From: Eledone cirrhosa
Taxonomy: Eukaryota
Length of the DNA stretch: 64,000 bases
NCBI GenBank assembly: GCA_964016885.1
Contig: OZ024742.1
Location: 82,212,001-82,276,000 of the forward strand
Reading direction: 5' to 3'
Shown: positions 5,747 to 64,000 of the stretch, one piece after another
Position numbering within the stretch: the first letter of the stretch is position 1
Layout of the letters: each line of letters starts with the position of its first letter
Translations under genes and position numbers: made by a program
Notes under the pieces: generated by a model
What the model saw: only the letters and a program-made list of their open reading frames with translations
Told to the model about the DNA's origin: nothing
Databases searched by the model: none

Positions 5747-5810
5747 ATTATCATTAAACGACTTTAACATCTGAAACTACTTAGCATTTTCTTATTCGGT
5801 ATATATATAA

Positions 5811-5870
<60 letters not shown>

Positions 5871-6000
5871 GTGAGGTTTATTTTACAAAATGAAAAATAA
5901 CCGAGGTATCCTACACGAGTGAAGGTATAAAGAAAAAGAGATGAAATCGAAAATGCAACTGGTGTCTTATTTTTTTTTAAATATATATATTTATTTGGTT

Positions 6001-6038
6001 CCTTTACCGGTTTCGCAGTTCTTCTGCTTTTCAAAAGG
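6001..6038 (-). ncRNA. Minimal type I hammerhead, family G (U3-A8 variant)
   Basis: cctt-TTGAAAA-gcag-aagaa-ctgc-GAAA-ccgg-TA-aagg on the minus strand. Confidence 0.75.
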
Positions 6039-7067
6039 TGAGTTGAGATGGAGGGTCTGTGGGTTTTCTCACATCTGGTTGGTCTCAGAATATTACTTGT
6101 TTTATATGGAAAAAGTGGCTCGAAATGCCAGGTTTTTCGAGAAGTAATTTGATTGGCTTGTCAATAATTATAATAAATTTCGTGCCAGTTCGCGTTACAA
6201 TTGTTCTTCAAATAAGAGGGGGGGGGGTGTCACAGGTTGTTTTTTTCATATATGAGTGTTTGAATTTCTTTTTACTTGAAAAAAGGGGCTCACGAAGGCT
6301 TTTTTTTCGTTGGTTATAAATGAAATTATGGCTGTCACGTGAACAAGTTTTCATTAAATTTCCGTGCCCTTATTTGGAAATCCATTCTGTAGCCTTTATA
6401 GAGAATGTTATGACAATGGAAAGATAGTGGTCAAGAGAAATGGGATTGGGAGAATTGTTCTGGTTCAGTGAATATGGTTGGTTCGCTGGGGTGTCAGAGT
6501 TCAGATTTTCTATTGAAGTAAAGATATGTATGTTTATTTGTGTGCTTGTGTGTGTGTGTGTGGGTGTGTGTGTGTGTGTGCGTGTGTGTGTGTGTATATG
6601 TGTGTGTATTGGAAGATGATTCTATTAGTAGAAATGGGTGAGGGAGATGTGTGTGTCTGTATATGGGTGTTATGTGTGTGTGTGCGAGTATGTTAAGATG
6701 GAGAGAATATATATTTTGTGTGTGTGTAGGAAAGTGGTTCTATTAGTAGAAATGGGGGAGGGGAGTTGTGGGTGTGGGTGTTGGTATGTGTGTGTATGGG
6801 TGTTATGTGTGTGGGAGTATGGTTAGCATGTTAAGATGAAGAGAATATATATATATATCGTGTGTGTGTGTGTGTGTGTAGGAAAATGATTCCTTTCGTA
6901 GGAATATTTTTGAGTGAACATATTTTCCTTACTTATTCGTATTTGTTCTGTTGTATTGTCAGTGCAAACGTATGTTAAGGTTTATTTAGTTCGGGTTTTT
7001 ATTTTCTAAAGTAGAAGGTGTTATGTGTGTGTGTGTATATCATATTATGGTGTTGACATAATGTATA

Positions 7068-7400
7068 TTAAACCATATTTAATGTTGGTGTATATTTTTG
7101 AATAAACATATTTTCCTTATTTATTCGTATTTGTTCTGTTGTATTGTTAGCGCAGAGGTAAAATGGGAAGTCTTGGAATTTGGGTGTCTTATTACTTGCG
7201 CAAATGTCTAGTGGTATCTGTCTCGTGGTTGGATCTCGTAATTGTTGGCGATGAACTGTCATTCTGTTTCTGAGTGTGAGTTTAGTTTGTCCTATATAAT
7301 CTTCATTGCATCCTTTACATTTAATGGCATAAATTAAATTGAAGAGCAAGTGAAGTGATTTTTTACAGTAAAATTTTGTCCTGATTTAAATGTATACGTG
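7068..7400 (-). pseudogene. PLE GIY-YIG endonuclease fragment
   Basis: LIY-x-I-x-C-x2-C-x3-YIGQT motif, conserved R and H, and C-terminal E..FI..P.LN. Confidence 0.85.
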
Positions 7401-13488: not shown

Positions 13489-14487
13489 AATTCCATATAT
13501 GGTCAAAGTGATTGTCAAAAATCAGTAGTAATTCTGTGGTTGCAAATTAGTAGGGGAGATGGTGGCTAAACCTGCCAGTAGGAGAAAGAGGGGAGGGGGT
13601 GGAGTAGCCCCAATCAAGCGTTTGTAGTGCCAGCTACAGCTGGGCATGAGGTCAAAGAAGATACAGGGGAGGGGGAGGGGGAGGAAGTCGGAACGGTAGG
13701 TAGAACAATGGGGGGTAGAAATATATAGGAAAGAAAAAATACTGAGAGTGAAGAAAAGCAAATAAGTGTAAAGAAAAACAAATGAGTGTAAAGAAAAAAG
13801 TAAAGTAAATTAAAATCTACGACCTAGGTCTCTAGCTATTGTTAGTCTAGAATAAATAAATAAAGAAAGAAAGAAAGAAGTAAAGAAAGAAATAAAGAAA
13901 TAACGAAATAAGTAAAAGAACTAGGTGGGACGGATTAGGCGAGGACCCTTTTAAGAGGTATAAGTACGTAAATGATACGGTGACGGGTCAACAAAAGGGG
14001 CCAAAATACTAATGAGACTACCACGAAATAAACAATAAAGGTTTCCATCCCGGGCACAATTCCAGCAAACACCCAGTGCAGCAAATTGAACTAATACGAG
14101 ATAATAATTCTGAGTCCCGAGAAAAATATATACTAATGCTAACTCTAAAAGATCTAAAACAAGCTACATGAAAGTTCGTACGAAGTAAAGGTAGAATACG
14201 GAAGAATAAATTCAGAATCCACCCCGCCCAAAAGAAAAGCGAAGAAAGAAATACTGAAACGAAAAAATAAGGCATAAGTGCCACTAAGAAATATAGAGGG
14301 CACAGAGAATAGTGGGAGCGGTCGGAAAAAGGGGACAAGTATCCGGTGTCTAAACCAACTGCTATAAAGGGCGGAGTCCGCCAAATCTATCCTAGACTAG
14401 GGGAGGGGGTGGGGGTACTAAGGCTACAAGGGGCCAAAGGGCAGCCTCGGGTGGGCGAGAAAAGACGCCGACAAAGGCTTATTAACC

Positions 14488-16071
14488 TCTATCAGGCTTA
14501 TTAACCCAACGAAGTCCGACATAGGGCGAATCAGCAAAAAAATCCTAGACCGCGTGATACCAAAAGTCAAGCAACACACCCGACTTAGCCTATGGATCAA
14601 CACCCAGGAAGTAATCTCCTGGTTCAGCAATATGGAGGATAAACGAGAAACTAAATTCATACAGTTCGACATAGAGAGCTACTATGCTTCAATCACCTTA
14701 CCGCTACTTACTGCCGCCTTGGACTTCGCCGAAACACTTGTGCCCATCACCGACCAGGAAAGAAAAATCATTCTCCACGCCAGGAACACAGTCTTACTCT
14801 TTGACGACTCTAAATGGATAAAAAGAGCTCCCTACTCACCCTTCGACGTCAGCATGGGCGCCACGGATTCGGCGGAGGTCACAGATCTTATAGGATTATT
14901 CCTAATAGCCAAACTCACTGATATGTTTCCTGCATTCAGTGGTGGATTGTACCGTGATGATGGGCTCCTTACCCTTAAAGGGTACAACCCCAGTAGTACA
15001 GATCGGGTCCGGAAACAATTAATCAGATTCTTCCGCGACTGGGGATTTAAAATAACCCTACAAACGTCCCTGACCAGAGTAAACTTCCTGGACGTGACCC
15101 TCGACCTCGAAAACGACCTGTACTACCCATACAGGAAACCTAATGACAATCTGCACTACATCCACCGCCGATCAAACCATCCTAGGAACATCACAAACAA
15201 CCTGGTCAAAAACATCTCCCTCCGCATATCCCGTTTGTCAGCTAATGAGCGGATATTCGATGAACATGCGCCTTATTACAACCAGGCCCTCAAGCGGAGT
15301 GGTTTCCGGGAGGAAATATCCTACTTTCCAGCTCCCATTAGCGGAACCAGCAGGAGACACCGCCGCTCACGCAATGTAACATGGTTCAATCCTCCCCACA
15401 ACGCAGAGGTGACAACTCCCATCGGGAAACTATTCTTTAGGCTCATTGAAAAACACTTCCCATTACAACACCGCCACCACAACATAATTAACAAAAATAC
15501 CATCAAACTCTCTTACAGCACTACACCAAACTTCGCACAAAACATCGTCTCCTCTAACAACAAAAAACTCAATCCCGATGGCAGAAATAACCTAAATAGC
15601 AGTGGAGAACCGACCAGGAGGTGTAACTGCCCGGATAGATCTATTTGCCCACTCGACAATAGATGCAGAGACCGTAATGTGATCTACCAGTGCAACGTGA
15701 GGACGGATACCTCCAACAAAGCCTATATAGGACTTACCGCATGTGACTTCAAGACCCGGCTATACCAACATAGACATAACTTCCGAAACCCGGCCCGGCG
15801 TCACGCCACTACACTTTAGGGCCACATATGGGACCTCAAGGACAACAACATCACCTATGATCTCACTTGGAGATTACTGTCCAGGGCCAATTCTTACACG
15901 GGAGGACGCCGTCCGTGCAATTTATGCTCGGAGGAAACTTTACAAATGATGTTTTCGACGGACCAACTCCTAAACAAGAAAGATGAACTGGTTACTGCAT
16001 GTAAACATAGATTGCGTAGGACTTACCTCGCCCTCAAACACCATAATGACCCGGGGGGGGGGGTAGACTAG
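14488..16071 (+). pseudogene. PLE reverse transcriptase plus GIY-YIG endonuclease (N-truncated, one premature stop)
   Basis: RLINPTKS, FDIESYYASI, GLYRDDGL, VNFLDVTL, WFNPP, CNC..CPL..C, VIYQC..YIGLT. TAG at 15817-15819, after which the frame continues GHIWDLK..CNLCSEE..LLNK..CKH. Confidence 0.95.
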
Positions 16072-23598: not shown

Positions 23599-26500
23599 CT
23601 AATACTCTGTTATACATTTATTATCTATACATGAGTGTCTTTGAAACGGGTATGTCTTGCTAATAAGTGTTTTTACGGAGGTACCTGGTCTTTCTACTAT
23701 CTTAATATTGAGTTTATGTTTATTTAGGGCCCTTCTAAATTTGTAGGCTAGTTCGCCTCTAGGGGTTGTATCGATGAACATTACACTCTGGTATTTATTG
23801 CTATCATACCATGGGTTTATTCTATTAACATTATTCCTAGTTCTTTCTATTATATTCCAAAATTTGCTCCTATACAAGGGGCAGGTCCCATTTATGTCAT
23901 TATTTACCATTTTTTCCCATTTGGTTCTGGCTCCTCTATACATTCTGATTCTATCTCTCTGATTGTAGCCAGAGAACTGCATACGGTGGATGAAGTGTTG
24001 TATGTGTCTCTCTAGTTCTTCGGGGTTTCACATGCGGGACACATTTCTCATCACCCGTACCAAATCCGCAATCAGTATGTTGATTTTGGTATGGTCCGAA
24101 ATGGCCGAGTTTCGGTGGATCAGATGTTTGGAAGTCATGGGTTGGGCATAATGGGAATGGAGGATTTGTTTTTGGTTGTTAATGGTATCTAACCAGAGCT
24201 CTGTGTCTAGTACAGGTAATCGATGCTTAGGGTGTCTACTTGGGTAGTCTATAGTAACTCTAATGCTCTGGTGGATGGAGTTTGCTATTTGCTGGATGCT
24301 TTCCATTGTGTTTTTCTCTAGTTCCTGACTGTTCTCTAGTGGGGGTGTCTTAACTATGATGTTTATATCATCTTCGTAGCGGGAGTACATTATCAGGGTT
24401 AAGCTGTCTTCTAATTGTTCTTTAAGTTTAAGTTTAAGTCTACTGTCCCACCATACCATGAATAAGTTAGCTATGTCGCCTGCAATGTTAACACCAATGG
24501 CTGCTCCTTCCTCTTGGGCATATTTTTTTCCATTAAATTTGAACATATGTTGCTTAAGGGTTAATTTTATGCTGGCCCCTACCGCCTGTGCAATCATTTC
24601 CTTCAGTTCATCGTGGTTTTCTGTGTGGGTTTTCTTGGCCATTGAGGTAATGGTAGGTGGTCTGCCTCTTGCTGGTCTTGTAGGGCACAGGTTGCTAAGG
24701 TCATATGTGTCTAGGTAACTATTACTATGGGTAAGCTTAAGTAGAAGTCCCAGCTCACTGGTATCAATCCCACGGAACTCAACCTTGCTCTCGTTGATCA
24801 TTTCTACGCATTTCTCCACAGCAAAATCCACGTCAATAGATGGATACAGGAACACAACATCCATACTACCTATTATGCAGTTTGTTAGGTCCCCAGATCG
24901 GTTACTCACGCCGATTCTGCTGAGGAGCTCCTCCGTGCTGTCACATACATCTGGGGACATCTCAATGATGGGGCGTATGATCAGGGAGAGGAAGTAGGAC
25001 AGTCTGTAGTTACTAGCAATGTTAGCTCCACAGACCGGCCGTGTTGGTGGTCCCGCGACAGGGTCACAGTCCGTTTTATGGTCTTTTCGAAGCCCGTACA
25101 ACGCCGGCACGTCATTGTTCCAGGCCTGGAAGTTGTTGGCAGTCCTTTTGTTGGGCTGCATTATATTCGTCCACATCACCATATGGGCATTGAGGGCTTT
25201 TTCTCTATCCTCATGCTCCTGTGGTGTTACCTCTCTTGTGTTAGTGATGTGGGGTTGCATTGCCTGGATGTAGTTTGGCAGGCTGTCAATCGACATTCTG
25301 CCAGACTTGTCTGTTGGAAAGCATGCTATCTCTCCATTACGTGAGCGCTGCATGAGCTTACGCAAGCCATTTGCAGATTTTTATCCCAGTTGCTGGGCCT
25401 CTATTCTATTATGCTTCTTGCTATACTGTTCTATAATATTTCTAAGTTCGGATCTAGCTATACTAAATTGTGCTTCTGTTTGTTCATCGACCTGCGACGG
25501 CAACTGCGTGCGTTTGTTAAATGGTAAAGTCGTGGCGTGGACTCGTCGCAGGTCGAATGATTTATCGGAGGAATTATAAAACGGAGAGTTCCAGGCTGCT
25601 GCTTTATGTGTACTAGTGCTATTGTTATTGTTAGTTGTGTTGTTTCTATTTCTATTTCCACCAACAGCCTCATGGTTGTTTCTATGTCTCTCATAATTAC
25701 TCCTGTCTCTTTCCACTGGCTCAATGTTGTTATCTACCCTATTTTGTGTGTCTGTGTGTTCGTCTTGGTTATTCTCTTTGTCCTTAGTCTCCCTTCTCCT
25801 TTTAATCCTATTACTTTCCCTTATTTCTGTGATTTCTGTACTACTGTCATTACTTGTTTTCTGTGTCTGTGTGTTTGTTAAGATTGTGGTGGTGGTGAGA
25901 GGCATTGAATGCGTGTGTGTTGTTGTTGTTGATGTGTGCTATTGTTGATGTGTCTTGTTGTTGTCTATGTGTGTGTTATCGTTGTTGTGTGTGTTGTTAT
26001 TGTTGTTTGTGTCTGCGTGTCTGTTGCTGTTGTTTCTGGGTATGTTGTCATTGTTGATGTGTGTGTTGTTGTTATTGTTGTTTGTGTCTGTGTGTCTGTT
26101 GTTGTTGGGATGTGTGTTGTATATGTGTGTGCGTATATTGTTGCTTTTGTTTTTGATGCTCCAGCGTAGTTTTGTAAATGATTTTTCTATTTCTGACAGA
26201 CAACTAATCATATTTACCTTCTTGAATGTCGCAAATTTCGGGGGCAAACACAACACAAACATTTCGTCATTATCTATTTTTGCGTTCCCATATATATTGG
26301 TGTTTTTGTTGTTGAACTCTTCTGTTAATGAGGTGTCGGCCATGTTGATACCGTCAATTTTGTCGGGATATCTATTGGTATACTCTATACTATCCTGATT
26401 TAGCTTTACCTGTTTAAGCCACTTTAGTTTGTTAAAGTGCTTATCACATTCTTGAGTAATGTACTGTTCTTCAGGGCGTATAAGGCTTATAAATATTAGT

Positions 26501-27064
26501 TTCTCTCTTGGTGTGGTGATCCTAGCTATTTCTTGTATTAGGTTACGCTTTTGTTTTTCTTGATGACTTAATTCTCTATAGATCTTCTTTTTTATGTTTA
26601 GAATTAATGTTCGTTTTAGCCTATCTGCTTGTTTTTTGGTGAGTTGTAATCTTCTAACGTCGGTATTGATGGTGTTGGTGTAGATTCTGGACTAGGCACA
26701 CTGCTTTATGAAGTATAGTTGTCGAGATGTTATGGTTTTTCGTAGACAACAGAACATGGTGGTTTTCAGTATCTTGTTAGCCTGGCTAAGGCTTACGATA
26801 TTTCGTTTCTGAATTTGTTTAGCAAGATTCTTTATCTGAAATCGTGTGTTGAAACTGATATTGTTATACTTTGGGAGGGTCATGTTGCCAATAAGAAACA
26901 CACGCACCAGAAGCTTTCAATTCAATTTATTATATATTTATAAATTTATAAATTTACAAATCTACAAATTTATAAATTTCTGGTTGGTTGGTATTATAAT
27001 AAATTGAAGTGAAAGCATCTGGTGCATGTGTTTCCTATTGACAACATGACCCTCCCAAAGTATA

Positions 27065-43017: not shown

Positions 43018-44165
43018 ATAACGGCGATGAATTAGTTCTGCGAGGTTTTTTATATGAAATCGTGTGTCGAAACAAATATTTTTTATACTTGGGGAGGGTC
43101 ATATTTGTGTAATATTGCCAGAATTAATAACAGAACACATTCACTGTTTGGTTGGTTTTCGCTTTTCGCTTCTGTGTCTTTTATATCGGTAATCTAATTT
43201 ATTCGGTCCTCAATGTTGCCATTGACTGACCAACCGTCAAAAATAATACAGATACAATATAGACACAAACACATATATATAGTTTATCAAAGTTCTTTCG
43301 TTGCACATCTGCAACATCGTCAGTGGTGCTATTGTTTCCTCCCGTTACATTGTATGTCTACACCATCTTTATTTAGTCTGTTTATATATTTATTTATTTG
43401 CTTGTTTGTTTATTTTATTTTTTCTTCTTTGCGCATGCGTTTGCGTGTGTGTATAGTGTTTTGTTTGATGTGTGTTCGTGATTGGGTGACTGTGTATTGG
43501 TTAATGTATTCTATCCTTACTAGTGTGTGTTTATATGTGTTTGTTGTTATTGTGCTTGTGTATGTATTTATTTATTTATTTATCTATTTATTTATTTATA
43601 CTTCTCTTAGGTCAGTGTTGTTTGTTTGGGTGTTGTTGTTATTCCATTCATTCTTTCTGTTTCGTCTTGGCCTTCTAAGTTCTATTTCACTGGCGTCTCT
43701 GATTTGCCTATCTGCTGGGTCATTTCTATGTTTAGATATTATTCTAATTTCTATATTGTCTATGTTACCGTCGTGTTGTTGTCTGGCATGTTCGCATAGT
43801 ACTGACCCGTTTTTTTTTAGTTCCCCACAGTGTTGGTCTATCCTTTCACCTATGCTACGAGCTGTTGTACAGCTTGTAGCATACAATGTAACATACAATG
43901 TAACGGGAGGAAACAATAGCACCACTGATGATGTTGAAGATGTGCAACGAAAGAACTTTGATAAACTATATATATGTGTTTGTGTCTATATTGTATCTGT
44001 ATTATTTTTGACCGTTGGTCAGTCAATGGCAACATTGAGGACCGAATAAATTAGATTACCGATATAAAACACACAGAAGCGAAAAGCGAAAACCAACCAA
44101 ACAGTGAGTGTGTTCTGTTATTAATTCTGGCAATATTACACACATATAACCCTCCCCAAGTATAA
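43018..44165 (-). mobile_element. Short PLE: GIY-YIG C-terminus plus family D pseudo-LTR with inverted arm
   Basis: ORF 43596-43870 reads TARSIGERIDQH..SVLCEH..H..RQIRDASEI..P..N..NEW. 43084-43355 is inverted at 43893-44165. Confidence 0.85.
43286..43327 (-). ncRNA. Minimal hammerhead, family D
   Basis: acca-CTGACGA-tgttgca-gatg-tgcaac-GAAA-gaac-TT-tgat. Mirror copy on the plus strand at 43921-43962. Confidence 0.65.
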
Positions 44166-44200
44166 TTATATTTATATATATATAAACAGATTATATATAT

Positions 44201-44467
44201 AGAAATGGTTACACAACAGTTAGTTCACCATACCGAGAACAATTGTTTCACCTGAGCGGATCCTCAGCTCGTAATGGACAGTTATCCCCCTTACACCTCT
44301 CGCATGCATTTTAGTATTGCCTGTGTGAAGTGATCGTTTCTGCGCATTCGCGTTTGTATGGTTGTCCTTCCTGTTCCGTATAACCATGTCCATTACAAGC
44401 TGAGGATCCGCTAAGGTGAAACAATTGTTCTCGGTGTGGTCAACTAACTGTTGTGTAACCACTTCTA
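44201..44467. mobile_element. Fold-back element with a hammerhead in each arm (family I)
   Basis: 44201-44285 is inverted at 44380-44467. HHR cgag-CTGAGGA-tcc-gctca-ggt-GAAA-caattg-TT-ctcg at 44234-44271 (-) and 44396-44433 (+). Confidence 0.7.
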
Positions 44468-44552
44468 CCTAACTTGTCCCCTGGACTGAGTGCTCTACCA
44501 CTACAGATATTACCTTCCAGTGTTCTACCACTATATATATATATATATATAT

Positions 44553-45130
44553 ACAAACCGAGCATTATAATAAATGTTCGGTAAACCGATACGTGCATAT
44601 ATGTGTGCATGTATGTATATATATACATACTATTGTACGTTTGTATACATATATGTATGTACGTATACATACATACTTACATATAAGTAAGTGCCGTACT
44701 AAGACTGGGAAATGAAATTCCGTTTCATTCTATTCCATTTATCGTTTTCGGTGCGCCCGGCCGACTGAACTCACTCGATATGCAAATTAGGCTGCTCAGT
44801 CGTTAATATGCATAAGGAAAATATATACCTTTAGACGTTCAACCATCTGGCAGGAAGGTATACGATGCTGACGATAGCTAATAAGTTTGAAACTAGTACA
44901 TCGTTCCTGTGTCAGTGTTGAACAAAAAGGTGACGTTGTTGCCTAAACACTGTATGGCGTAATTCGGGCTGGTTGTTTGTTTACAAACAAACAAACAAAC
45001 CGAGCATTATAATAAATGTTCGGTAAACCGATACGTGCATATATATATGTGTGCATGTATGTATATATATACATACTACTGTACGTCTGTATACATATGT
45101 ATGTACGTATACATACATCCATACTTACAT
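44553..45130 (+). mobile_element. Family J non-coding HHR element, ~1.3 tandem units (~445-bp period)
   Basis: 44553-44682 is repeated at 44995-45130. No ORF; TA-flanked. Confidence 0.8.
44862..44904 (+). ncRNA. Minimal type I hammerhead, family J
   Basis: acgatg-CTGACGA-tagct-aata-agttt-GAAA-ctag-TA-catcgt, with palindromic stem III ACTAGT. Confidence 0.8.
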
Positions 45131-59171: not shown

Positions 59172-59237
<66 letters not shown>

Positions 59238-59377
59238 TAACAGATTAAAGTTTAAGCAAAGAATCGCTGCTTTAATAAATATTTGCTCTACGGTTCTTAT
59301 ACATTTGATATATATTTTCCTTATCGAGCCCTCTTTGGATTTTAGTCTTCAATTTTATTATTATTACTATATATATA

Positions 59378-59617
59378 TATATATTAATAAAAGGAATTCC
59401 AACTGTGTCTGATTTACTTGTTTTATTTACAATCCTTTAAAATTTATAATGGTATTAGAATGAAATAGTATGGTAGAATATTAAGTGTTAAGTGTTAATT
59501 GACACTTAACATTTAATATTCTGCCATACTATGTCATTCTAATACCATTATAAATGTTAAAGGATTGTAAATAAAACGAGTAAATCCGACAAAGTTGGAA
59601 TTCCTTTTATTAATATA
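59378..59617. repeat. ~240-bp imperfect palindrome
   Basis: attaataaaaggaattccaact...gtgttaagtgttaattgacacttaacat...agttggaattccttttattaat, centred near 59497. Confidence 0.9.
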
Positions 59618-62336
59618 ATCTTCTATACACAATCATACACACCCGTGTATATTTATATATATATATATATATATGCTGGCTTTAAAATCACCTCTGACCT
59701 CAAAATCCTGGACCGGAACGAACCTCTGGACCCTATTTCTCCCCACTTTACCCTGAAGGATCACAAATCCTATTTCCCGAACAACACCTCTATTCGGCTT
59801 ATTAACCCTACGAAATCCGATTTAGGTAGACTTAGTAAAAGGATTTTAGATATAATTATTCCTGGAATTAGAAGTTTGGGCCGTCTTGCACTGTGGAACA
59901 ATTCTTTCGCGGTGATTGATTGGTTCAACGGCATATGCAACAAGGAACATTGCCGTTTTATCCAATTCGACATCAATAATTACTACTCCTCCATTATTTT
60001 ATCACTTCTTCTTAGAGCTATCACTTTCGCTAAAACACTCACAGTGGTTAAGGATTTCGATGTTGATGTCATCCTCAATGCCCTTAAGTCGGTGATTAAT
60101 TTCGACGACTCTATTTGAATTAAAAAATCTAATGGTACTGTATTCCACGTGAGTATGGGCGCCAGCGATCCTGCGGAGGTTACTGATCTTATTGGCCTTT
60201 TCCGTCTTTTCTCTATCAAGGAAGACTTCCCCAACGTGGGCTTAGGTTTGTACCGTGATGACGGTCCTTTGACTATGAAAAAGTGCGGCCCACGTGCTTG
60301 CGACAGGTTCAGAAAAGAATTCACAGCATTCTTTAAAGGCTTCAACCTCTATTTACAGGTTGAGGCCAACCTCTCGGTCGTTAATTACCTCGTCGTTACC
60401 CTCAGTTTGTCGAATGGCTTGTACTACCCGTATAGAAAGCCGAATGATACGTTTAATTACATAATAAGCATTCTAACCATCCTGCGAGCATAACCAAGGA
60501 TCTGGTGAGAAACGTTTCTACAAACGAGCATATTTTCAACGACCATTCCACATATTACAATGAAGCTCTTGCTCGGAGTGGATTTGTCGATAAGATAGCT
60601 TATACAGAGTACGAGAATAGACCTAGGAAAAATCCCGACGCATTTGTTGGTATAACCCACCATATAATATGGAGGTGGCCACACCATTAGCTAAGATCTT
60701 TCTCTCCCTTATTCTCAAGCATTTCCCACCAGCCCATAAATATAGTAAAATTGTTAATAGAAATACCATTAAAATGTCTTACTCTACGACTCCTAACCTT
60801 GCACATAACATCACAGCTTCAAAATTAGCGAAATTACCTAGCCGTAGGAACACGTGCAACCTTGTAGCTAGTACTAACTGTAATTGTAAAAATCGGGTTG
60901 ATTGCCTCCTATCCGGGAAATGCCTCTCTAGTAACATTGTCTAGAAATGTAAGGCTGAAACACCCACGTCTCGTAGGGCCTACATAAGGATAACCGCCAA
61001 TAGATTCAAGCAGCGTCTTTACATGCATACCTATTCTTTTTTTAACCCTTTAAGAAGGAATATGACGTCACATTAAGCTTATATCTGTAGTCTAAAAGAC
61101 AACAACACGCAATATAAGTTACACTGGGAGAGCCTAGCTAGGACTAGATCGTATAGCGGAAATAAAAGACCATGTGACCTCTGCGCCGCTGAGGCCCTGG
61201 AATTACTCTACGCTAAAGACCACATCTTAAACCAAAAAATCTGAGGCAATTTCGGGCTGTAAGCATAAATTGCACAAAACTTTCCTGTATTACAGCCCCA
61301 CATTATACCCTAACAGATAGTACGAACTATACGCTGATATTTTACGTCTTCATGTGGTAACTAAGTATATGTTATGTTAATACCATTACTTATTCGTATA
61401 GGTTAGTATATATTACCTGTATGCTTTGTGAAGATACGTATACTTTCTCGTACGTATATTTGCTTGTATATGTTATGGCGTATATATTTTATATGCTGGT
61501 ACATGTGCATTTGGCTATGTGTATACGTGAGTTTTGCGTCTGTGTTAGTATGCGGGTTCGTACATGTGTGTATATGTGTACTTTGTGTTTTTGTTGGCGT
61601 ACGTCCGCGAACATTTATGTATTTACATGTAGGTATGTGTGTGCATATACGTATTTATGTGTGTATATTTATATATATTATGTATACACGCGCACACACA
61701 CATAGATATATTTTTTTTATATATATTTTTATGTGTATTTGGTGTATACGTTCGTATGTGTGCGGGTACAGGCGTTGCGTGGGTTCTGTATGTGCGTGCG
61801 TGTGTTTTGTTTTGTGTGTGTACGTGCTTGTATTTGCATACCCATGGCGAGTGTTTTCTTGTAAGCTTGTGTATTTACGTATATGGATGCGTGTATGTAT
61901 ATATTTAATTTCAATTACCTTTGTAATATATTTACTTTATTCTTAACTCTGAAGCCGAGAATTATTCGGTTTCCTAAATACAATTGTTATCTATGACTTC
62001 AGTTATACCATTTACGTGGTTTTGTCATTGCGTGTAATTGCTCTCAGCGATGCACATAATGACGTATTATTTTCGTTTTTTTCGTTCATTGCCAGAGAAC
62101 GTCTCCATCAAGCACCTAATAGAATATTAGTCTATGACTTCATTTATCCCATAAATGTGGTTTTGTCTTTGCGTGTAATTGTTTTCATAGTGCCAAATAA
62201 TGCCGTATTATCTTCATTTTTTTTTTCAGTTATTTGCCAGGGAACGTTTCACGAACCAACGTATCGTCTTCCTGTCTTCCGTCGGTTGCAACATTTTTTG
62301 AAATATTTACTTCTGCGTTCACAGATTGACCTTTTT

Positions 62337-62387
62337 AGCTTTAGAAGATCCCGTTAAGGGTGAAAGCAGCGATTCTTTGCTTAAACT
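62337..62387 (+). ncRNA. Decayed hammerhead at a PLE 3' end (family L)
   Basis: agctt-TAGAAGA-tccc-gttaa-gggt-GAAA-gca..tgc-TT-aaact. Core positions 3-4 are mutated. Confidence 0.45.
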
Positions 62388-62442
62388 TTAATGTGTTATT
62401 TTAATAAATATAAATATATATATATATATACACATACATACA

Positions 62443-62950: not shown

Positions 62951-62981
<31 letters not shown>

Positions 62982-63141
62982 AATTGGAATAAATGCTCTG
63001 AAATAGCGATACATATGTGAATATAGACATAGAATATTCGAAAATATTCTGTATGTTTATAATAAACATTTTGAAGACCTAATCGCTATAGAATAGAATA
63101 CGTCACGTATTACAATTAGATTCTCGATAAAAGCAAGGGAA

Positions 63142-63184
63142 GTAATCTACGCGTTTCATTCTCGTTAGAAATCATCAGGACTAC
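63142..63184 (-). ncRNA. Type I hammerhead ribozyme, family K copy 1
   Basis: gtagtc-CTGATGA-tttct-aacg-agaat-GAAA-cgcg-TA-gattac. Canonical core, palindromic stem III ACGCGT. Confidence 0.88.
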
Positions 63185-63451
63185 ATATCCAGTGCTTTTA
63201 TCGAGAATGACACAGCTAGAGACTTATAGAATACTTAGCTGTGTACAGGAACTGGTTTGAAAGAGCGGTTGCCGGTCCGGCAGAAATTAGAAATTGGAAT
63301 AAATGCTCTGAAATAGCGATACATATGTGAATATAGACATAGAATATTCGAAAATATTCTGTATGTTTATAATAAACATTTTGAAGACCTAATCGCTATA
63401 GAATAGAATACGTCACGTATTACAATTAGATTCTCGATAAAAGCAAGGGAA

Positions 63452-63494
63452 GTAATCTACGCGTTTCATTCTCGTTAGAAATCATCAGGACTAC
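63452..63494 (-). ncRNA. Type I hammerhead ribozyme, family K copy 2
   Basis: Identical to copy 1, +310 bp. Confidence 0.88.
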
Positions 63495-63761
63495 ATATCC
63501 AGTGCTTTTATCGAGAATGACACAGCTAGAGACTTATAGAATACTTAGCTGTGTACAGGAACTGGTTTGAAAGAGCGGTTGCCGGTCCGGCAGAAATTAG
63601 AAATTGGAATAAATGCTCTGAAATAGCGATACATATGTGAATATAGACATAGAATATTCGAAAATATTCTGTATGTTTATAATAAACATTTTGAAGACCT
63701 AATCGCTATAGAATAGAATACGTCACGTATTACAATTAGATTCTCGATAAAAGCAAGGGAA

Positions 63762-63804
63762 GTAATCTACGCGTTTCATTCTCGTTAGAAATCATCAGGA
63801 CTAC
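63762..63804 (-). ncRNA. Type I hammerhead ribozyme, family K copy 3
   Basis: Identical to copy 1, +620 bp. Confidence 0.88.
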
Positions 63805-64000
63805 ATATCCAGTGCTTTTATCGAGAATGACACAGCTAGAGACTTATAGAATACTTAGCTGTGTACAGGAACTGGTTTGAAAGAGCGGTTGCCGGTCCGG
63901 CAGAAATTAGAAATTGGAATAAATGCTCTGAAATAGCGATACATATGTGAATATAGACATAGAATATTCGAAAATATTCTGTATGTTTATAATAAACATT

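Follow-up and report, generated by a model that had tools for sequence, protein, structure and literature searches.

The last kilobase of the 64,000-nt stretch of DNA analysed here (the window, G000:C3:82212001-82276000) holds a 310-bp repeat beside a (TA)n tract, with a hammerhead ribozyme (HHR) motif in every unit. How such an array is built, and from which template and by which enzyme, is the question raised by this locus. For animal retrozymes, movement by way of an RNA circle and the reverse transcriptase (RT) of a Penelope-like element (PLE) has long been a proposal, and PLE insertions themselves have inverted arms and a tail on one side that call for an explanation. The 310-bp family carries both of these signatures, and because it is young and has thousands of loci with readable variants, it allows a circle to be tested against a multimer as template, and twin priming against fold-back.

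The array at the window edge and its ribozyme

The array at the end of the window consists of three identical 310-bp units (starting at 62981, 63291 and 63601) followed by 90 bp, and these last 90 bases of the window are the same as the beginning of the unit. TRF run on the window returned a period of 310 with 3.3 copies at 100%. No ORF of at least 120 aa was found within the array, and it thus holds no RT plus GIY-YIG ORF of the kind that marks an autonomous PLE. The letter-for-letter match bore out the original prediction of at least 3.3 identical non-coding units, and the (TA)n expected beside the 3' end of the ribozyme strand was present as a tract at about 62956-62981 (annotated without strand at 62956..62980 as the microsatellite target that flanks the left arm on its outer side). 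The predicted tandem array stood as far as the identity of the units was concerned but not as a plain head-to-tail run, as the array runs on past the window edge and inverts there. The part inside the window (62981..64000, 3.3 units, ribozyme on the minus strand) belongs to a left arm that continues to G000:C3:82276206 and has 3.95 units in plus orientation; it is followed by the inversion, a right arm of 3.7 units in minus orientation and a second (TA)n. The window therefore displays half of a locus that is, as a whole, a head-to-head palindrome. Its arms meet at unit positions 296/257, where they overlap by 1 nt. On its outer side the left arm has an end of the type termed long (unit position 1-5, 62981..62985, plus strand; putative RT start site 1), and the right arm ends outside the window in a short outer end at unit position 41. 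The site of the short end, unit position 29-41, lies at 63009..63021 (plus strand) in the first unit and is the putative start site 2. The earlier reading had neither the palindrome nor the pair of putative internal start sites.

Each unit contained, on the minus strand, all the named elements of the predicted type I hammerhead. The three copies in the window lie at 63142..63184, 63452..63494 and 63762..63804, with predicted cuts at 63148/63147, 63458/63457 and 63768/63767. Stem I (GUAGUC/GAUUAC, 63184-63179 with 63147-63142) has 6 bp including one G-U pair, and the CUGAUGA core begins at 63178, 63488 and 63798. Stem II (UUCU/AGAA) carries an AACG loop and a U-U at 10.1-11.1 and is followed by GAAA. 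Stem III is the palindrome ACGCGU (63154-63149 in copy 1), followed by U16.1-A17 and the predicted cut between 63148 and 63147. The sequence thus has C3UGAN7GA9, G12AAA15 and U16H17 with helices I-III, open at helix I, as type I requires. A perfect 16-bp helix (63208-63193 with 63135-63120, together 63120..63208, minus strand) lengthens stem I. The original prediction looked to Rfam for confirmation and none came, as no Rfam hammerhead family was matched in the array at E=1 or at E=10. This is a miss of the library; a match to an Rfam model is no defining catalytic feature. As Rfam was silent, chance was gauged instead by running our own descriptor on shuffles: in dinucleotide shuffles of the unit, taken as a circle and scanned on both strands, a minimal type I descriptor matched 1 of 50,000, and a stricter one (6-bp stem I plus palindromic stem III) matched none of 50,000.

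The predicted cut-to-cut monomer RNA (63148..63457, minus strand, 310 nt) would be linear, or circular after ligation. In its predicted fold stem I closes the ends (z = -3.95, none of 100 shuffles equally stable), and the hammerhead appears free to fold, with an internal loop after the 6-bp stem I. Co-folding of two copies predicted pairing of ACGCGU between the molecules, and a dimer mode of action has been described for hammerheads with such palindromic stems III (PMC4209133, PMC7229834).

A dispersed family and its older sisters

The core pattern of the hammerhead of this family, family A, had 17,872 exact matches genome-wide, and a 17-mer from the module common to the families described below occurred 21,542 times; the reversed controls gave 0 in both cases. 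The first 100 core matches formed 17 clusters across 31 Mb of C1, which extrapolates to about 1,600-2,900 loci, so we estimate that mirror-image arrays number a few thousand genome-wide. At 310 bp each, the 17,872 units would add up to about 5.5 Mb of perfect palindromes, which is close to 0.18% of the assembly. Most family-A arrays were 97-100% identical to each other. The units are non-coding tandem repeats within 150-450 bp, with GC under 50% and one hammerhead each, and they occur as dimers to multimers at many loci, as non-LTR retrozymes do. Genome-wide BLAST returned many dispersed TA-flanked arrays, so the array is not confined to a single locus, and the proposal of a young, dispersed, TA-targeted non-LTR retrozyme was upheld.

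Older sister families were found alongside family A, comprising A2 (about 95% alike), B (about 317-320 bp; L033, L034, L040, L042 and L049), C (about 330 bp; L119-L133) and remnants of others. They have the start module and the palindrome build in common and different hammerhead stems, many with a U3-A8 core. At the loci of families B and C that were examined, arrays were just about 1-3 units long and showed the same two end classes as judged by eye. The segment best conserved with B and C (unit 243-310 plus 1-114, 63223..63404, minus strand) contains a hairpin, the AT-rich short start, a CAGAGC stem around the loop with the long start, and a GC hairpin. This segment is a candidate PLE-binding and start module.

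Covariation was assessed in an alignment of 11 hand-picked copies of families A-D, aligned through the hammerhead. C3-G8 was present in 6 of the 11 rows and U3-A8 in the other 5. Stems I and II changed on both sides, with 22 double-sided changes and none of 500 shuffles as high; this is an undercount in that the rows of families B-D are one column off in stems I/III, and related rows inflate the shuffle test. Stem III was palindromic or nearly so in every family. Within family A (28 arrays), none of 24 array-wide variants fell in the catalytic core and 8 fell at permissive hammerhead positions. This pattern of change indicates that the hammerhead is under selection.

Several further observations were made on these families. 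Older sister retrozyme copies were also present at L155:6380-6500 and L158:9300-9650, and at L046:4450-6060 an entire family-B palindrome with its (TA)n stands in tandem three times with a period of about 495. Capture of a host promoter, suggested by L047 as the origin of the module, was rejected, since the sequence there is a fragment of the older family C. At L047, L048 and L114-L118 (G000:C1:211.9-213.0 Mb) this family-C fragment is followed, after a few hundred bases, by a putative exon that would encode a short N-terminal membrane anchor, and the arrangement is present in five duplicated copies. Sequencing runs X1-X6, filed under four organism labels, contained 75-84% of the sampled words of the unit at 99% identity where compared, which may reflect close relatives, mixed samples or cross-contamination. 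No RNA run was listed among these six, which speaks neither for nor against expression. Runs X1 and X2 each gave one closed 340-nt contig (310+30) of one haplotype, for which circle and tandem are indistinguishable; run X3 gave 571 variant contigs with (TA)n joins and run X6 four low-depth pieces.

Array architecture and the template for insertion

Array structure was examined in 37 non-redundant family-A arrays, comprising 18 from a best-match list (biased to the haplotype of the window), 18 taken in coordinate order (C1 0-31 Mb) and 1 met by chance. Two arms were present in 31 of the 37, all head-to-head with the RNA 3' ends outward; the other 6 were one-armed, and one of these abuts an assembly gap. 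Among the 30 gap-free two-armed arrays, 29 had one long and one short (TA)n-flanked end (counting L061, whose 29-bp arm scored as long at the threshold used), 1 was unclassified and none was long-long or short-short. The coordinate-ordered sample by itself gave long plus short in 13 of 14. Exact end positions, determined for 21 arrays, put the long end at unit position about -4 to 5 and the short end at about 29-42, some 30-40 nt apart. Both classes lie 130-165 nt downstream of the hammerhead cut site and neither end coincides with the cut. The long-end site falls within a single-stranded C/U/A loop of the predicted RNA fold, a fold kept in families A, B and C, and the short-end site is AT-alternating and could pair with a (TA)n primer. 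A C at unit position 32 in short ends, considered for a time, proved to be a selection effect of the best-match list. The outer flanks were of (TA)n type, an AT-rich microsatellite target, and they mask any target-site duplication. An inverted, 5'-truncated arm plus a 30-40 bp tail at one end (29 of 30) is the build of a PLE insertion, and the inverted arms with a one-sided tail match the PLE tail described previously (PMC11167929, PMC3846280, PMC8557442). This footprint supports the mobilisation by PLEs that had been predicted.

The centre junction, in contrast to the fixed ends, was locus-specific. Across 21 arrays, 12 junctions had a 0-6 nt overlap, 6 had unassigned bases (some of these being only short unit pieces skipped by BLAST) and 3 were longer complex joins. 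Locus-specific centres together with fixed end classes argue that the palindrome was built at insertion. Junction alignments supplied 48 inner arm ends, two of them adjusted by eye; 2 of the 48 lay near the cut site against 2.5 expected, and 11 lay on the long helix (unit 139-163), on its 3' strand, against 3.9 expected.

Full units (212 units from 21 arrays, leaving out A2 arrays and arrays with fewer than two full units) differed by 0.22 changes if they came from one arm, by 0.23 if from opposite arms and by 2.8 if from different arrays. Haplotypes typed at 22 diagnostic sites were concordant between the two arms in 27 of 27 informative arrays (4 were uninformative). Typing of 32 arrays gave 17 haplotypes, 11 of them private to one array and some held across 30 units, and the chance of two arrays having a common haplotype was 0.07. 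The haplotype of the window array is private, with C at position 32 in both arms. Arm lengths were correlated (rho 0.63, n=29; 0.71, n=14 in the ordered sample). The longest arms reached 26 units and the longer arm was the long-end arm in 15 of 29, with L054 being lopsided at 26.4 and 4.1 units. In the right arm of the window locus two adjacent units have one private change in common, and in L059 units 7 and 11 have two changes in common. Changes common to separate units are unobtainable in one pass round a monomer circle, which argues that arrays are also reshaped as DNA.

Given the observed features, namely the hammerhead motif and its covariation, the dispersal, the long and short head-to-head arms, the one haplotype per array and the locus-specific junctions, we think it rather probable that a PLE enzyme primed both (TA)n strands and rolled round a circular retrozyme RNA, building the palindromic array. 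A multimeric transcript would be cut by hammerheads acting as dimers via ACGCGU, and the monomer would be ligated to a circle by a host ligase. The PLE GIY-YIG would nick both (TA)n strands, and from the two 3' ends reverse transcription would start inside the RNA, at a pair of sites about 34 nt apart that lie 130-165 nt downstream of the hammerhead cut. Each cDNA would run past the cut site and go on through as many as 26 rounds, after which the cDNA ends may be joined through short microhomology with host fill-in, and units in the arms could later be gained or lost at the DNA level. One circle copied repeatedly accounts for the haplotype, arm-length and junction data, and the rolling reverse transcription of a circle put forward in the original prediction is supported, though unproven, by the single haplotype of each array and by the indifference of arm ends to the cut site. 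Several points speak against this model, among them the shared changes in the right arm of the window locus and in L059, the lopsidedness of L054, the 6 of 37 arrays with one arm, the lack of a module-bearing autonomous PLE among the families sampled and the failure of Rfam to register the hammerhead. In vitro, moreover, the anole PLE used mainly uncleaved RNA and its hammerhead mutants inserted normally (PMC11167929), and 8 of 9 Xenopus retrozyme dimers did not cleave (bioRxiv 10.64898/2026.07.22.740005). With a dominant source locus in a cell, matching arms also need not stem from one molecule.

The main alternative is that a linear uncleaved multimer (or short copies) was the PLE template, with later DNA amplification and conversion between arms, the hammerhead being a passenger of the pLTR. 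The preference for uncleaved RNA in vitro (PMC11167929) favours it, and a 2026 preprint (bioRxiv 10.64898/2026.07.22.740005) has a pLTR amplify locally in its model. Changes common to neighbouring units or units four apart also suit a linear template, and ends that ignore the cut site fit it equally well. For the 11 private haplotypes, however, it would require passage through a single monomer and a fresh expansion of both arms; the older families B and C, with only about 1-3 units seen per locus, show the opposite of growth with age; and the hammerhead core has been kept via compensatory changes. We regard a linear template as unlikely.

Self-priming of a single cDNA, with the second arm a fold-back copy of the first, has been proposed for PLE palindromes (PMC3846280). 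It would account for the identical haplotypes of the arms and for the gathering of junctions on a self-complementary helix (11 of 48 against 3.9). It sits poorly with arms of which either may be longer (the long-end arm in 15 of 29), with outer ends that are each at their own fixed site and with junction positions that differ (296 and 257 at the window locus). Re-annealing of tandem cDNA could still permit such differences in arm length and junction, and we judge fold-back copying to be quite improbable. Inverted repeats with TA flanks also recall a fold-back DNA transposon or MITE with TA duplication, and palindromes are a recognised artefact of long-read assembly. The ends here are unequal and the centre is locus-specific, where a MITE would have equal ends and a conserved centre. 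The sequences outside the two ends do not mirror each other, the build recurs in older diverged copies, and in contigs from an independent run (TA)n is joined to the unit at positions -3, 14 and 29. A transposon or artefact origin is thus barely credible and already largely refuted.

A stricter form of the rolling-circle reading can be put forward only tentatively, with the odds somewhat against it: each array may be the frozen record of a single twin-primed rolling-circle event, in which a dimeric PLE RT started from both strands of one (TA)n break at two fixed sites about 34 nt apart and its two enzymes moved in step for up to kilobases. The template would be a single 310-nt circle, or two circles in kissing contact via ACGCGU. 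If this is true, the arrays are direct genomic evidence that animal ribozyme circRNAs act as transposition templates, and the inverted repeats and the tail of PLEs are explained together. An RNA module of about 180 nt would then turn a circle into PLE cargo, thousands of spacer-less palindromes would have been seeded that could yield double-stranded RNA, and so compact a module might find use in PLE-based insertion tools.

Related systems and candidate PLE partners

Metazoan non-LTR retrozymes are likewise low-GC non-coding tandem repeats of 150-450 bp with a type I hammerhead and thousands of copies, examples being axolotl Rtz331/Rtz353, newt satellite 2, mussel and coral (PMC7229834). The hammerhead described here resembles HHR_Amex1 in having a one-pair stem III plus palindromic tetraloop, and HHR_Amex2 in the U-U at the base of stem II. 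Retrozymes with similar hammerheads yield circles in axolotl, mussel and coral, and PLEs were named as candidate mobilisers in the same study (PMC7229834). RNA and cleavage were demonstrated for those retrozymes; for the 310-bp family both are predicted. The arrays differ from them in being head-to-head with a PLE tail, and the main text of that paper does not contain the word 'inverted' (PMC7229834). Vertebrate retrozymes (Li, Clavereau, Pollet, bioRxiv 10.64898/2026.07.22.740005) also have units of about 300 bp, co-occurrence with PLEs and monomer-to-multimer loci. That preprint argues from such co-occurrence together with homology to pLTRs and prefers amplification in place, as DNA; the text examined presents no palindromes, tails or per-array haplotypes. 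Here an insertion footprint was seen while pLTR homology to a partner was not found among the sampled PLEs; the preprint has such homology. The non-LTR retrozyme type is known, and in the literature searched, supplements aside, no description was found of palindromic, tailed retrozyme arrays; compared with that literature the twin-arm tail footprint and the per-array haplotypes appear to be new. The repeat landscape of the genome resembles that of an octopod, and the main text of an Octopus vulgaris repeat annotation contains no 'retrozyme', 'ribozyme' or 'satellite'.

PLE insertions likewise have 5'-to-5' inverted arms with a 30-40 bp tail at one end (PMC3846280, PMC8557442). In the anole PLE (PAc/Poseidon) there are two internal RNA starts downstream of the hammerhead, with a spacing equal to the 30-40 bp tail; the purified enzyme, a predicted dimer, cuts and extends both strands of AT-rich DNA (PMC11167929). 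The 310-bp family resembles it in its AT-rich/(TA)n targets and in starts downstream of the hammerhead and away from the cut (PMC11167929). Unlike PLEs, its arms carry no ORF and are multi-unit tandems in which one small RNA is repeated as many as 26 times, and its hammerhead is canonical with a long stem I, where that of PLEs is minimal. Non-autonomous Chlamys elements such as MRC1 are likewise PLE passengers with multicopy head-to-tail insertions, but they mostly lack hammerheads and have 3' sequence in common with known autonomous partners (PMC8557442).

Candidate partners were sought in the genome with three PLE proteins plus PF01541, scoring 131-150 of 10,597-44,054 candidates in each search, and a fourth PLE family was obtained through the hammerhead pattern. 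Young PLEs with open frames were abundant, several with hammerheads and two (TA)n-flanked ends. No autonomous PLE with module or pLTR sequence in common was found among the PLE families sampled, and a profile built from 12 module copies matched, at PLE loci, only retrozyme copies or remnants. A Neptune-like 1176-aa family, named by its CxxxxCxxC linker, has two TA ends with a spacing of about 37 nt as judged by eye, a U3-A8 hammerhead core and a 6-nt palindromic stem III, with no sequence or fold in common with the module. By tail length and hammerhead type it would fit best as the partner.

This Neptune-like PLE is represented at L160 and L161 (G000:C4:310.48 Mb and 355.61 Mb), has many copies at 99-100% and is very young, and its 3' UTR is rich in (GT/TA)n. 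At L098:2986-3400, and also at L085, a family-B arm runs directly into an inverted piece and then the full pLTR of a Neptune-like PLE. This may be a nested insertion that has suffered a deletion, or else a hybrid insertion, in which case it would identify the partner. Another PLE family (L062:5500-5650, L105, L186-L215 and L226) had 4,214 exact hammerhead matches, a tail of about 67 nt and often tiny pLTR-only palindromes. Its hammerhead core and stem II are a near-match to family A, which may reflect common ancestry or module exchange. The window itself is PLE-dense, with copies of different clades at 59232-62400, 14422-15819, 23599-26691 (minus), 5800-7340 (minus) and 43300-44900 that carry hammerhead-like motifs and TA-flanked inverted ends. 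At 59383-59650 a pLTR-only palindrome lies between (TA)n runs with one short and one long end; its family is Neptune-like and has further copies in L157 and L257.
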